Origin: an uncultured Chlamydiae bacterium
GTDB taxonomy: Bacteria > Chlamydiota > Chlamydiia > Chlamydiales > JAJFMB01
Assembly: GCA_963696295.1 (NCBI GenBank)
Contig: CAVOJR010000001.1
Coordinates: 2,080,001 to 2,144,000 of the forward strand
Length of the DNA stretch: 64,000 nt
Reading direction: 5' to 3'
The notes below the pieces were generated by a model that did no database searches, was not told where the DNA came from, and worked only from the letters and a program-made list of their open reading frames with translations. A program made the translations under genes and the position numbers. Shown piece by piece: positions 30,638 through 35,214 of this stretch; the stretch's first letter is position 1, and each line of letters begins with the position of its first letter.

Positions 30638-32191
30638 ATGAAAAAGAATATTGCTCTTCTGGTCGCGCTGTTTTTGGCTATTGCCGCTCCGGGTCTCCAG
30701 GCGAAAAAAATCACGTACAGCGATTTTACTGAAAGCTCCTTTAATTTTACGGATATGGCTCTCAGCGATGATAAAATCAAAATAGAAAGCAGCGAGCTAT
30801 ATCATTCCGTCAAAGCAATTTTTCTGGATGGCAAGTATGTCATGCTTGAAAATGACTTTATCTGGGAAGTGGACTACTGGTATCAGTCGACAGCCAATAA
30901 GTGGCAAGAGGGAGACAAGCTCAAAGTTTATCGCGATGATACCTGGGAAATAGAGAATGTCACCAAAGGCAATTCAGTCTATGGCCCATTTGCCGGATAT
31001 GAGCGGGCACAGCTGGGCCGGATCAAGACCATTCGCGACGATAATACCCTGATCGAACTCGCCGACGGGAAGCAATTTCAAACCCTGTCCCTCTCTTTAG
31101 TGCATAGCTCCGGCTCCCAGCCGGGCGATCTGGTTTTCTGGATGCACAGCAAAGGATCCTCTACCCACAAATACGCTCTTTGGAATTTCACTCGGGGCTA
31201 TATCATGTATAACCTGAAATATCTGGGCGTTGCAGGCGCTTCCAAAGACGAAACAAAGATTGTCTTCGATTTGAGCCACATCCAAGATTTGGAGAGTCGT
31301 TTAGGCGCTCAACTGAAAGGGCAGCCGGGGGCGATTAAAACGGTATGCGACGCGCTCCTTCGCTTTTCCCTGCATTTGAACGATCCGCAAAAGCCGATCG
31401 GCGCCTTCCTCTTTGTCGGTCCCACCGGGGTGGGCAAGACGGAGCTTTGCAAGGCTTTGGCCCGCGAGCTGTTGAAGTCTGAGTCGGAAATCATCCGTTT
31501 CAATATGGCCGATTTTAACTCGAGAGCGAGTGTCTGGAGATTAATCGGCGCAGCTCCCGGTTATGTCGATCATGAGGCCGGGGGGCAGCTGACCGAGGCG
31601 ATCAAACGCAAGCCGAACGCCATCGTTCTCCTGGACGAGATGGAAAAGGCCGATCCCGAAGTACAAAAAATCTTTTTATCCGTGTTTGACGAGGGCTTTG
31701 TCCTGAATGCCGATAACCAGCGGATCGATTGCTCCAAGTGCCTTTTTGTGATGACCTCGAATTTGGGTTCCAAGGATATCATCAATATGTCTCACAGCGG
31801 AAGAAGTTCAGAAGAAATTTTGGAGAAGATCGAGCCTTTGCTGATTCGGGGATTATCGCCTGAGCTGTATAACCGCCTGGAGCCGGTCGTGTTCCACGCG
31901 ATTTCTGAAGAAGTGCTCAGTGATTTGGTCGATCTTTTGCTCAACAAAGTGGTGAGCAATTTTAAGGAAAAAAGAAACATCACTGTGAATATCGATGAGA
32001 GCGTTTATCCTTATTTGCTTAAAAACGGGTATTCGGCCGAACTCGGCGTCCGTCCGCTAAAAACATTGATAGAGAAGAAAATTGTCGGTTATCTTTCTCA
32101 GGCGATTGCAAGTGATAAGATTCCGGATGGAAGCACTATGTGGATTTCCTACGACGCAGATAATTTTGATTGGATAATTGAATGGGAGTAA
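30638..32191 (+). CDS. Signal-peptide-bearing AAA+ ATPase (ClpB NBD2-only) with an extra N-terminal beta-rich domain
   Basis: MKKNIALLVALFLAIAAPGLQA signal; GPTGVGKT, GAAPGYV, LLDEMEKA, MTSN, PELYNRL and GVRPL motifs. Confidence 0.85.
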   Translation: MKKNIALLVALFLAIAAPGLQAKKITYSDFTESSFNFTDMALSDDKIKIESSELYHSVKAIFLDGKYVMLENDFIWEVDYWYQSTANKWQEGDKLKVYRDDTWEIENVTKGNSVYGPFAGYERAQLGRIKTIRDDNTLIELADGKQFQTLSLSLVHSSGSQPGDLVFWMHSKGSSTHKYALWNFTRGYIMYNLKYLGVAGASKDETKIVFDLSHIQDLESRLGAQLKGQPGAIKTVCDALLRFSLHLNDPQKPIGAFLFVGPTGVGKTELCKALARELLKSESEIIRFNMADFNSRASVWRLIGAAPGYVDHEAGGQLTEAIKRKPNAIVLLDEMEKADPEVQKIFLSVFDEGFVLNADNQRIDCSKCLFVMTSNLGSKDIINMSHSGRSSEEILEKIEPLLIRGLSPELYNRLEPVVFHAISEEVLSDLVDLLLNKVVSNFKEKRNITVNIDESVYPYLLKNGYSAELGVRPLKTLIEKKIVGYLSQAIASDKIPDGSTMWISYDADNFDWIIEWE

Positions 32192-33237: not shown

Positions 33238-35214
33238 ATGATTAATCTGGTTTATCCAATTTACGCAGCCGAAGTATTCGCAGGAGAGTGCCTGGAGGTA
33301 AATTCGCATCGCAATCATCCCGATGCTAAGAGTGTGGATGAGGATATTGCCAAGATTGCCAAGGAAAAATTGGGAATGAAGTCGGTCGACGGCATTCAAG
33401 TGGTCGATGATTTGCATACCGGCGAGCTTTCCAAATCGTGGGGCGCGACTTCCCTCGGGTCGCTCGCGAAACCCGTCATCGCTTTGCAGAGCGGGCTTGA
33501 GACCAGCGCGCCTAATGCGAGGCGTTATCTGCTATTGCGGGAGCTTTACAAAACATCCAGTTCCCTTCGGATGAAAGAGATTGCCATAAAAGTGGTCCAA
33601 GTCGCCATTATGGTTGGCTTGATGATGTCTGGCATCGGCTTTTATGCTATGGTGGGCTGCGCTATCGGCCTCTTCGTGGCCAGTTACCTGATCGACGCGA
33701 GAATGAATTATAATTGCTCCGTATCCGCCCATCAGTTTGCCATCAAGGAGATTGAAGAGAAGGACAGACCGGAAGTTAAGGCGGCCTTTGAAGCGATGAA
33801 TTCGGTGCGTGAGATGAAAGGGTTTATGAGACAAGGCGTCCTCGAAGATCTGAAGATGGATAAGCCGGTCGAAGAGCCGTTCGTTCAGGAAGTGGATAAA
33901 GCGTTAGCCAAAGCCTATAAAATAGTAGATGAGCTGAGAACCCTCACAACAGTAGAAACGAGGAAGGGTGAGCTGCTCGCAAAATTTAAAGAGATGGAAA
34001 AAGAGCTCGAAAAAGGGGAATTCACTCCCGAGCAGGAGTCGAAACTCTGCGACAAGCTCTATGATATCAACGAAGAACTGACGCAAATTAGAGAATTTGA
34101 ATTGAAGAAGGCCGGGTTGCTCACCCTCGTCCAGGAGATATCCCAAGAGCTGGAAAAAACCGATTTGAAAGAGACATCCCAGTTGCCTGTTAAAGGGAAA
34201 GCGGTCTATGAAGAGCTCTTACATTTCAAAGCCGCGCATGAAAGATACGCGCCTGTGTTTGATGGAATCCAAGCTATTGCCGATGAGTTTGCCAAAAAGA
34301 AATTGAGCGGCGAGTCGAAGGCAAACCTGATGAACAAACTCAATGACTTCTACAAAAAATTCCCCTACGCTACCGACATCAAAGATGAGGATATCTCCAC
34401 GGCTGCAAAGAGACAGCAGCTGTATGAAAAAATGGTCAGCGAACTGGAACAAAGCAAACTGCCTCTAATGGAGAAGGGAAAGCGGATCCTGGAACTGCGC
34501 GAAATTTTCGGCGAGCTCAAAAAAGGCCCCTTTACTTTCGATACCGCCCTCTTCGCCCCCATCGAAAAAGCGCTGCAAGAAAAGGGTGCTACACTCGAAG
34601 AGAAGATCGATCTGGATCAATTAGTTCAGGAAATTTCCGAGGAATTGAAAAAATACACTGTAAACGCGGAGGAGATGAAAGAACCCCTCGCTAAATTCGA
34701 GGAATTCTCCAATGCGCTCGACAAGGGAGACAAAGCCTCCGATGACGATCTGAAGAATAAAGCCGAGGCCTTTTTCGACGAGATGAAAAAGTTACGGGAT
34801 TTGCATTTGTCCCTCACCCAAAGGCTGATTGAAAAATGGAACGCGATGGAGCTTACCCCAAGCGGCCTGGATCTGCCCTTTAAATTACGCCCCTCAACGG
34901 ACAAGGCGAGCGACTTTTATAAGGAGCGGGAAGCGTATCATCTGCAGGATTTGGACAAGACGAAGCTGTTCATCCAGACCATGCCAGGCGTTATAACCTT
35001 GCTGATTATCCCCAAGTTGCTGGAACCGATTGCCAAAATCAATCCCCTTCTGATTCTGCCCGCCTACGGCCTCATCAGCCAAGGGATTGGCATGATGCTG
35101 ACTCCGGCGGCCAATTGGCTAGGCCACTACGCCATCGACTGGCAATTCCTGCGCAACACCAAGCAGCCCCGCCCGGCGAAAGTCGAGCCCGGTGTCTGGC
35201 AAGGCGCGCTCTAA
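33238..35214 (+). CDS. Membrane protein with a bilobed hydrophobic domain and long coiled coil (Inc-like)
   Basis: ~40-aa hydrophobic hairpin IAIKVVQVAIMVGLMMSGIGFYAMVGCAIGLFVASYLI, an E/K-rich helical region and a second C-terminal hydrophobic region. Confidence 0.65.
   Translation: MINLVYPIYAAEVFAGECLEVNSHRNHPDAKSVDEDIAKIAKEKLGMKSVDGIQVVDDLHTGELSKSWGATSLGSLAKPVIALQSGLETSAPNARRYLLLRELYKTSSSLRMKEIAIKVVQVAIMVGLMMSGIGFYAMVGCAIGLFVASYLIDARMNYNCSVSAHQFAIKEIEEKDRPEVKAAFEAMNSVREMKGFMRQGVLEDLKMDKPVEEPFVQEVDKALAKAYKIVDELRTLTTVETRKGELLAKFKEMEKELEKGEFTPEQESKLCDKLYDINEELTQIREFELKKAGLLTLVQEISQELEKTDLKETSQLPVKGKAVYEELLHFKAAHERYAPVFDGIQAIADEFAKKKLSGESKANLMNKLNDFYKKFPYATDIKDEDISTAAKRQQLYEKMVSELEQSKLPLMEKGKRILELREIFGELKKGPFTFDTALFAPIEKALQEKGATLEEKIDLDQLVQEISEELKKYTVNAEEMKEPLAKFEEFSNALDKGDKASDDDLKNKAEAFFDEMKKLRDLHLSLTQRLIEKWNAMELTPSGLDLPFKLRPSTDKASDFYKEREAYHLQDLDKTKLFIQTMPGVITLLIIPKLLEPIAKINPLLILPAYGLISQGIGMMLTPAANWLGHYAIDWQFLRNTKQPRPAKVEPGVWQGAL

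Follow-up and report, generated by a model that had tools for sequence, protein, structure and literature searches.

In the window analysed here, a stretch of 64,000 nucleotides from a chlamydial genome (G000), two adjacent genes, A and B, encode proteins that apparently belong to an undescribed family of signal-peptide-bearing, protein-unfolding ATPases; no description of such a family was found in our literature searches. Judged on sequence, both products are probably exported and catalytically intact ATPases of the ClpB NBD2 type, as the initial annotation had proposed. We consider it likely that the family represents chlamydial ATP-driven unfoldases acting outside the cytoplasm (in the periplasm, the inclusion lumen or the host) and powered by host ATP, the NBD2 of ClpB having been fitted with a signal peptide and with an OB-like exported module. 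An ATP-driven chaperone may thus operate outside the cytoplasm of chlamydia-like symbionts, both its export and its activity being predicted. The features of the locus are:

30579..30607, + strand: sigma-70-type promoter-like site (TTGAGT-17-TATAAT, extended -10 TG), 30 bases upstream of the gene A ATG
30638-32191, + strand: gene A, 517 aa, signal peptide, tandem OB-like barrels and ClpB NBD2
30638..30703, + strand: predicted Sec signal peptide of A, 22 aa, cleavage between LQA and KK (rule-based test)
30800..31231, + strand: two small OB-like beta-barrels, residues ~55-198 of A, occurring also as small proteins of their own, often with a signal peptide
31265..32188, + strand: ClpB-type NBD2 of A, with K267, pore loop GYVD, D333/E334, N375, R413 and R472, and no ClpP-docking loop
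32182..33237, + strand: gene B, signal peptide and bare ClpB NBD2, 347 aa counted from ATG 32194
32194..32259, + strand: predicted Sec signal peptide of B, cleavage after Ala16 (rule) or between LPA and KN
33238-35214, + strand: gene C, 658 aa, near-orphan membrane protein coupled to B

The coupling of the three genes is as first described: A and B overlap in the TAATG at 32189-32193, and B and C meet in the TAA-ATG at 33235-33240. Gene B has three in-frame ATGs (32182, 32191 and 32194), each of which retains the signal peptide, and that at 32194 has the best Shine-Dalgarno match. The promoter-like site upstream of gene A is a consensus match only; it scores 10/12 and is one of the two top scorers among 13 such sites in 29400-36200, where 7.4 +/- 2.8 are expected from shuffled sequence. 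Three DNA sequencing runs, possibly not independent of the assembly, returned scattered short pieces only, some identical to the window (including 32185-32335), and none of the pieces returned spans the locus.

AAA_2 and ClpB_D2-small are the only Clp-specific Pfam models above cut-off in A and B. Both proteins align to positions ~555-850 of the 853-position ClpB model TIGR03346, scoring 270 and 310 bits, under its equivalog cut-off of 1232. Since the match is confined to this region and no other Clp model was matched, A and B lack the Clp-N, NBD1 and M domains, and the single intact NBD2 read by the initial annotation stands, together with its GYVD/GYVN pore loops. All features of the Clp/Hsp100 NBD2 clade were found, namely the two Pfam models, Walker A and B, sensor-1, the arginine finger and sensor-2. 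Over 130 family domains, the Walker A lysine, the Walker B aspartate and the sensor-1 asparagine are invariant (130 each), the Walker B glutamate, the arginine finger and the sensor-2 arginine are each kept in 129, and the pore tyrosine, present in both A and B, in 124. The two proteins share 62% identity over 313 aa. The top sequence matches in a search of PDB chains were ClpC/ClpB chains (237.8 bits), and the modelled structure of A compares to the ClpB NBD2 4fcv with a target TM of 0.91 and an rmsd of 2.0. ClpA/ClpC/ClpX protease partners carry an IGF/L-type ClpP-docking loop after sensor-1; an IGF-type loop was found in 0/44 family domains, in which the segment at this position has 36-37 aa against 44 in the ClpC of this genome, which has VGF. 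We expect, with considerable confidence, that the family members are active ATPases.

The initial annotation had described both proteins as a signal peptide followed by a single NBD2. This layout holds for B; in A it overlooked a folded domain of ~145 residues (~55-198), modelled by AlphaFold as two barrels between the signal peptide and the ATPase. The structural match of this OB-like pair is weak (best Z 6.6, rmsd 2.5, 64 aligned), its atlas similarity is 0.76, and Foldseek with the OB model gave no match at E <= 0.001 in PDB or viral libraries. DUF1344 was matched in 7 of the 16 aligned members (best E 2.6e-4), A itself being unmatched. The pair is present in 81 of the 120 top family hits and also makes up 16 stand-alone proteins, of which the signal-peptide rule described below accepts 10; small stand-alone OB-pair proteins occur in 77/150 genomes.

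Signal peptides were assessed not by SignalP but by a home-made rule, which membrane anchors pass too. By this rule the N-termini of A and B both pass, in agreement with the Sec-type N-termini noted at first, and that of C fails. The rule is passed by 91 of the 120 top homologues, chosen by ATPase profile score, against 0/91 full ClpBs; in a separate set 37/41 family proteins pass, and among the full Clp ORFs in loci 1/50. By chance, 199 of the 1384 ORFs of at least 300 aa on contig C1 pass at their first start and 273 with lenient starts, a background of 14-20% of the genome's ORFs. The hydrophobic core lies within residues 1-35 in 113 of 130 family proteins and within 36-70 in one, and a signal-peptidase-like site is found in 99 of these 113. 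Under the home-made rule this is the Sec/SPI pattern (positive n-region, short hydrophobic core, small residues at -3/-1), and no lipobox was found in 41 family proteins and no Tat motif in 130. The AlphaFold model of A has a helix at 2-20, then a low-confidence linker at 18-51. The core is weaker in B than in A (best 11-residue hydropathy 2.48 against 3.33), and for the cleavage of B the homologue alignment favours the LPA site over that after Ala16. A KK at the mature start, as in A, can hinder export. In P0252, labelled at NCBI as Candidatus Protochlamydia naegleriophila, which we take to grow in amoeba culture, the annotated start misses an upstream signal peptide. We hold with high confidence that proteins of this family are exported, as predicted from their N-termini.

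A, B and their homologues form one family (SH-aLRT 97-100), which groups with chlamydial ClpB with moderate support (86). These values come from short IQ-TREE searches without bootstrap, and the phylogeny that had been suggested against ClpB, Skd3 and torsins is answered for ClpB, the trees being without the other two. B sits in the OB-bearing clade beside A (94 and 91), so that the OB pair was lost in B while the signal peptide stayed; on this placement gene B is a paralogue of A that arose by duplication. The genome carries a third copy at a separate site and retains full ClpB and ClpC. A split or frameshifted ClpB is ruled out, since B begins with a signal peptide of its own, the members of homologous pairs are annotated as separate genes and this genome has both full proteins. 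P0126, with a signal peptide, an OB pair and two NBD2, is not an A-B fusion, as its two domains are sisters (99).

Most members are only 33-54% identical to A and are labelled in databases 'ClpB', 'AAA family ATPase' or 'hypothetical protein'. The combination of signal peptide and NBD2 recurs across Chlamydiota, a point that the initial annotation had proposed to check, and at a strict cut-off the family is found in at least 14 of 400 Chlamydiota genomes. Outside this phylum the search covered 301 genomes of the phylum of G432, with no family match at E <= 1e-112 and five candidates scored per genome, and four single genomes. A search for related loci found at least one member among genome contigs (L107) and none among metagenome contigs. 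Other metagenome loci (L073-L099) contain unrelated NBD2 proteins with three hydrophobic segments.

As to the gene order, there appear to be two further A+B pairs, P0002+P0006 and P0003+P0007, the two proteins of each pair coming from the same source and from contigs of equal length. Gene C is unmatched at 17 other loci of the family. A bare NBD2 without an A-type neighbour is common among the members. The A-type proteins P0002 and P0003 are without the pore tyrosine, which their presumed B partners retain, and this fits mixed rings. No neighbour conserved across the 17 other loci indicates a substrate; the sole shared neighbours are a TruA-like gene near 2 of the 17 and one weak 23% pair, which we take as chance.

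We are inclined to suggest, giving it about an even chance, that the family is a Sec-exported, stand-alone periplasmic unfoldase fuelled by host ATP bound for ADP/ATP translocases. The motor would descend from the NBD2 ring of chlamydial ClpB. Once exported and freed of their signal peptides, the subunits would assemble into a periplasmic ring that may unfold or remodel envelope or secreted proteins on its own, independently of DnaK and ClpP, like Skd3. The OB-like pair could bind substrate and/or aid ring assembly, and B, which has no accessory domain, would, more tentatively, probably co-assemble with A at this locus. An isolated ClpB NBD2 is reported to be inactive, probably for want of hexamers, and Skd3 is described as an NBD2-only stand-alone disaggregase (PMC7343390).

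The fuel would be host ATP in transit through the periplasm to the inner-membrane translocases. This genome has four TLC-family nucleotide translocase genes, and the ADP-ATP translocase is described as conserved across new chlamydial lineages (PMC5826181). In E. coli, ATP from outside is reported to enter the periplasm (PMC7432876). The bacterial periplasm is described as being without ATP and its quality control, for this reason, as ATP-independent (PMC7053576). As the family is patchy while the translocase is general, ATP import alone fails to explain its presence. If the proposal is true, the family would break, in bacteria, the rule of ATP-independent envelope chaperones and would be a convergent bacterial counterpart of mitochondrial Skd3.

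It is possible, if rather improbable, that Sec export is followed by release across the outer membrane, by type II secretion or vesicles, into the ATP-rich inclusion lumen or host cytosol, where the proteins would act as unfoldase effectors or as a protein-transfer motor by analogy with HSP101. All the export evidence applies equally to this reading, and sequence cannot separate the periplasm from secretion beyond it. The genome encodes two secretins, and type II secretion is given as the route of the chlamydial effector CPAF (PMC5826181). Moreover, HSP101, a ClpB homologue, is reported to unfold cargo at the vacuole membrane (PMC8896661), and the patchiness, the three copies in this genome, the tandem duplications and the variable neighbourhood may be seen as resembling effector families. 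However, a search for eukaryote-like or targeting domains found none, no pore or translocon gene is linked at family loci, the catalytic and pore residues, far from diversifying, are strongly conserved, and the frequent stand-alone OB pairs look more like an envelope module. We modestly favour the periplasm over a location further out. Through this family one can ask directly if an energy parasite spends ATP within the envelope or sends an unfoldase into its host.

We think it improbable that in vivo the N-termini fail to act as export signals and that the enzymes are cytoplasmic, whether through a downstream start or through an N-terminal anchor with the ATPase inside. Such a location would solve the ATP problem, and the unrelated NBD2 group of L073-L099 shows that forms with hydrophobic segments exist. 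In-frame downstream starts are present in A (ATG 30755 and 30842) and B (TTG 32320 and GTG 32329), but none has a better Shine-Dalgarno match. Moreover, 29 of the 120 top hits fail the signal-peptide rule; by eye these are mostly truncated calls or hydrophobic N-termini without K/R, and P0194 looks different. Against this reading, the hydrophobic core is kept across members that are mostly 33-54% identical to A, and the fused OB pair mostly occurs behind signal peptides. The core is also short (19-residue hydropathy >= 2.0 in only 17/130), and its charge polarity is N-in, the N-flank being more positive than the C-flank in 98 of the 113 proteins with an N-terminal core and the reverse in 5.

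An AAA+ arginine finger and pore tyrosine make sense only in an ATP-hydrolysing ring that grips polypeptide. Their near-complete retention argues against an exported protein that does not thread but binds or senses ATP, or acts as a slow switch in capturing or monitoring host nucleotides, a reading that we likewise regard as improbable. In its favour, the pore loop has drifted from GYVG (+2 position N in 79, D in 22 and G in 23 of 130 domains), the tyrosine is missing in 6/130, and a bare NBD2 may fail to form rings (PMC7343390).

Gene C has hydrophobic clusters at ~115-155 and ~577-625 and a K/E-rich middle. Its N-terminal part resembles M48 peptidases (atlas similarity 0.92 on a part, a lead only), the membrane-bound members of which are quality-control enzymes. 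There was no Pfam match to PF01435 (M48) or to AAA models, and we read RELYK where HExxH would be expected. One homologue was found among proteins of 361-1152 aa and none among the neighbours of the 17 other family loci, which include the third copy in this genome and leave out the neighbours of P0002/P0006 and P0003/P0007. The case for gene C as part of the system, proposed initially as membrane partner or substrate, is weak, all the more so as it has no signal peptide, and its link to A and B may be restricted to one lineage. A torsin-type system, with C activating A and B at the membrane or serving as their dedicated substrate, is very improbable: C is coupled to B and has the hydrophobic clusters and M48 resemblance just described, but A and B have their own arginine finger, so that an activator of the LAP1/LULL1 type is not needed, and a hairpin topology would keep most of C off the periplasm.

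Among known systems, the NBD2 of ClpB/ClpC is the closest in sequence, fold, catalytic motifs and tree grouping; the family differs in being without Clp-N, NBD1, M domain and ClpP loop, and in having a signal peptide, mostly an OB-like pair (81/120) and a pore that is mostly GYVN/D. The inter-domain of mycobacterial Mpa/ARC, a tandem OB ring, likewise places small barrels before an AAA+ ring. The match of barrel 1 is weak (Z 4.7, rmsd 2.8, 52 aligned), its Z lies in the range of common arrangements, and Mpa/ARC is cytoplasmic and of a different AAA+ clade, which makes it a lead only.

Plasmodium HSP101 carries a signal peptide. This ClpB homologue of PTEX is described as the unfoldase of a vacuole-dwelling parasite that works outside its cytosol (PMC8896661), yet it is a full two-ring ClpB with an M domain and dedicated pore partners (208 bits), whereas no partner genes were found here. 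Torsins, of the ER lumen, share a signal sequence, rule-based in our case, and an extracytosolic, Clp/Hsp100-related single AAA+ domain; they are described as lacking the arginine finger and aromatic pore loops and as needing LAP1/LULL1 (PMC5425593). The family has both residues (129/130 and 124/130), the Pfam Torsin model PF06309 reaches 17.9 bits for B, short of its cut-off of 27, with A not listed, and no torsin chain is among the best 60 of 69 PDB matches, so the 'torsin-like' mechanism first suggested is not upheld.

The best analogue is Skd3 (human CLPB) of the mitochondrial intermembrane space, which likewise combines a targeting signal, an accessory domain and a single NBD2-like ring, and which is described as stand-alone and outside the main protein-synthesising compartment (PMC7343390). 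Skd3 is eukaryotic, has ankyrin repeats, for which A and B gave no Pfam match, and scores 161 bits against 238 for ClpB, whereas the accessory domain of the family is modelled as two beta-barrels. The likeness to Skd3 would be one of convergence. The family also supplies a minimal, naturally occurring ClpB motor of one ring, and an independent case to set beside Skd3, torsin and HSP101.

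The layout of three coupled genes described in the initial annotation was confirmed from the sequence of the window, where the features are as follows:

30638-32191, gene A, ATPase gene
ending at 33237, gene B, ATPase gene
33238-35214, gene C, third gene
30 bases upstream of the first ATG of gene A, promoter-like site

The NBD2-only build was also borne out: A and B each encode a single NBD2 of ClpB type, together with its small C-terminal subdomain, and no other part of ClpB. The two proteins are 62% identical across 313 residues, and the uncorrected divergence of their genes over 296 codons is 0.81 at synonymous and 0.24 at non-synonymous sites. 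The source genome (G000) is chlamydial; it also encodes a full ClpC and a full ClpB, the latter being sister to the ClpB of a Waddliaceae record (support 95; all supports are SH-aLRT). A third copy, on contig C1 (2347754-2349304; L031:5755-7305), encodes 516 aa with a signal peptide, a pair of OB-like barrels (OB pair) as in A, and NBD2; it is solitary and lies on a family branch distinct from that of A and B. Contig C2 (135 kb) carries at 58610-60469 a divergent 619-aa NBD2 ATPase on a long branch, unrelated to the family, which adjoins a radical-SAM-like and a kinase-like ORF (labels by motif reading). In the window, 27313-29454 (minus strand) encodes a protein of 713 aa, whose C-terminal domain is LOG/lysine-decarboxylase-like but scores below cut-off and whose long N-terminal region matches no family.

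In a protein search with A, 18 near relatives ranked above ordinary ClpBs, and a search with its N-domain gave six further members. With a profile built from nine short forms, the 120 top-scoring hits all lacked NBD1 Pfam marks. Signal peptides were sought with a home-made rule, which is not SignalP and asks for a positive n-region, an uncharged hydrophobic run and small residues at -3/-1. It passed 37 of 41 family proteins and 91 of the 120 hits (88 from the annotated start), these being kin, not independent, picked by an ATPase-dominated profile that also contained N-termini. The homologue search upholds the recurrence of a predicted signal peptide joined to a lone NBD2. As controls, the rule passed 0/91 full ClpBs, 1/50 full Clp ORFs in the loci and 199 of 1384 long ORFs of G000 (273 when lenient). 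On visual inspection, most of the 29 failures looked like truncated calls or had a hydrophobic N-terminus without a basic residue; one, P0194, resembles a later-placed membrane anchor. A short hydrophobic core lies within residues 1-35 in 113 of 130 family proteins, with N-in polarity in 98 of these, and neither a Tat motif nor a lipobox was found in the family proteins scanned. At L219:1447-2526 (genome G246) the frame of P0252 runs 18 codons further upstream, to a GTG, and so opens with a signal peptide absent from the database annotation.

Two arguments for export are independent of the details of the rule. There are 16 proteins in which the accessory domain of A stands alone, 10 of them passing the rule, and 77 of 150 Chlamydiota genomes contain a match to it, chiefly in short frames. 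Moreover the B-type proteins of the window nest beside A within the OB-bearing clade, so that the duplicate lost the OB pair but retained its signal peptide and the mature start common to both. Export of the family proteins is predicted with high probability. The likeness of the barrels to OB folds is weak (best Z 6.6, PmrD; Z 4.7, Mpa inter-domain). Three stand-alone proteins of G000 (L217:5071-5823, L218:4547-5248 and L218:5258-5923), with signal-peptide-like starts and the repeated barrel motif of the N-domain of A, had no Pfam family above cut-off, and we assign them to an unnamed chlamydial envelope domain family.

The 120 hits and the earlier members share one side of a single branch (FastTree, 153 domains, support 99), and the family branch was recovered in short IQ-TREE searches with 44 domains (support 97) and with 20 chosen domains under a mixture model (support 100). 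The family falls on the chlamydial ClpB side with moderate support (86), in a tree that omits three divergent chlamydial Clp proteins placed near the family base by the 44-domain tree. These (L024:4770-6944, L029:4269-6671 and L030:5247-7394) have no signal peptide and a degenerate or replaced NBD1, and are possible intermediates toward the family.

The OB pair is present in 81 of the hits and absent in 39, and at least nine have a tandem double NBD2. Such tandem forms, headed by a signal peptide and with or without the OB pair (L213:6036-8144 (= L107), P0004, P0145-P0155, P0126), we read as a rebuilt two-ring or linked-dimer motor. Seventeen of 400 Chlamydiota genomes reached E <= 1e-116, three of them through full-length ClpB, leaving 14 with the family, G000 included, a floor because three candidates per genome were scored; other searches added six genomes. 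No member turned up in family f36 (29 small genomes) or in the phylum to which G432, a Verrucomicrobiales record, belongs (301 genomes). Records of named members are Parachlamydiales, Parachlamydiaceae, Rhabdochlamydiaceae and Protochlamydia. Metagenome loci L073-L099 (e.g. L093:5332-6759) encode proteins of 450-490 aa in which three hydrophobic segments at the N-terminus are joined to one ClpB-like NBD2 whose C-terminus is shortened; the surroundings are low in GC and element-like. Too divergent for the trees, these proteins are regarded as a separate, independent NBD2-only design. Clp proteins of ~920 aa in L040-L071 combine an N-terminal cysteine-rich stretch and hydrophobic segment with a variant Walker A in NBD1, and are possibly membrane-anchored.

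The motor itself is well preserved. All 130 domains compared have the lysine of Walker A, the aspartate of Walker B and the asparagine of sensor-1; the glutamate of Walker B, the arginine finger and sensor-2 are each present in 129 and the pore tyrosine in 124. The ClpP-docking loop is missing from all 44 domains inspected. In the structure predicted for A by AlphaFold (mean pLDDT 85, pTM 0.59), a signal helix and a loose linker lead into two beta-barrels, followed by an NBD2 with a target TM of 0.91 to ClpB. Having no M domain, these proteins have no DnaK site. The same was noted for Skd3 in the consulted part of PMC7343390.

Gene C had been proposed as membrane partner or substrate, an idea that should be downgraded or dropped: when 152 neighbouring ORFs, taken from the window and 17 family loci, were compared all against all, neither a conserved context nor a relative of C emerged. 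Over the length range searched, the protein collection gave one homologue, P0144, which shares the N- and C-terminal parts around a charged middle of unequal length, and no paralogue was found in G000. By the rule the N-terminus of C has no signal peptide; its N-terminal part resembles M48 peptidases in the atlas, with Pfam match and HExxH motif absent, and its bilobed hydrophobic stretch and coiled coil are, in our view, reminiscent of inclusion-membrane proteins. C is possibly an inactive M48-like or an inclusion-membrane protein. The A+B pair seems to recur as P0002/P0006 and P0003/P0007, each pair from a common source and from contigs of equal length, adjacency being presumed; P0006 starts MGV, like the B frame of the window at its overlap with the end of A. 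Both pairs have lost the pore tyrosine in the A-type partner only, a sequence pattern that suggests mixed rings; in the window locus both proteins have it.

We consider that A and B may well, at about even chances, form a periplasmic unfoldase. Sec would export the ATPases with cleavage of the signal peptide, and the subunits would assemble into a ring that threads substrates without DnaK or ClpP. Imported ATP would have to cross the periplasm, which is described as devoid of ATP (PMC7053576, in part); the portions consulted of PMC5826181 and PMC7432876 report a conserved ADP-ATP translocase in chlamydiae and entry of external ATP into the E. coli periplasm, and G000 has four TLC-family genes (putative nucleotide translocases). 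Against a periplasmic unfoldase count the reported inactivity of isolated ClpB NBD2 (PMC7343390, same part), the patchiness of the family although ATP import is general, and the lack of an indicated substrate. Onward secretion of the exported ATPases into the inclusion or the host is a less probable but serious contender. Set beside the predicted signal peptides, a cytoplasmic location is improbable, and so, set beside the preserved motor residues, is an exported ATP binder without threading.

The family is a real, recurrent variant of the Clp/Hsp100 motor and apparently undescribed. In full-text literature (main texts, subscription journals thinly covered) we found no description of such a family and no paper joining environmental chlamydiae, ClpB and a signal peptide; periplasmic or extracytoplasmic AAA, periplasmic ClpB and periplasmic disaggregase did not occur among the matches listed. 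The 'periplasmic ATPase' of ESX papers is presumably a different protein class. The parts consulted of PMC3220658, PMC3482391 and bioRxiv 10.1101/2025.04.25.650208 held nothing bearing on it.

The torsin analogy of the initial annotation has to be dropped or downgraded, since the arginine finger and pore loop lost in torsins (PMC5425593, in the part seen) are retained here, and a torsin-type system together with gene C is very improbable. The core surprise, a predicted exported ClpB-NBD2 motor, holds after both ideas have weakened. Closest in presumed working mode is Skd3, a stand-alone single NBD2 ring with a targeting signal and an accessory domain (PMC7343390, as excerpted); however, the family has no ankyrin repeats and ClpB scores above Skd3, so it is not a Skd3 member. 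For secretion into the inclusion or host, the analogue is HSP101 (PMC8896661, in part).
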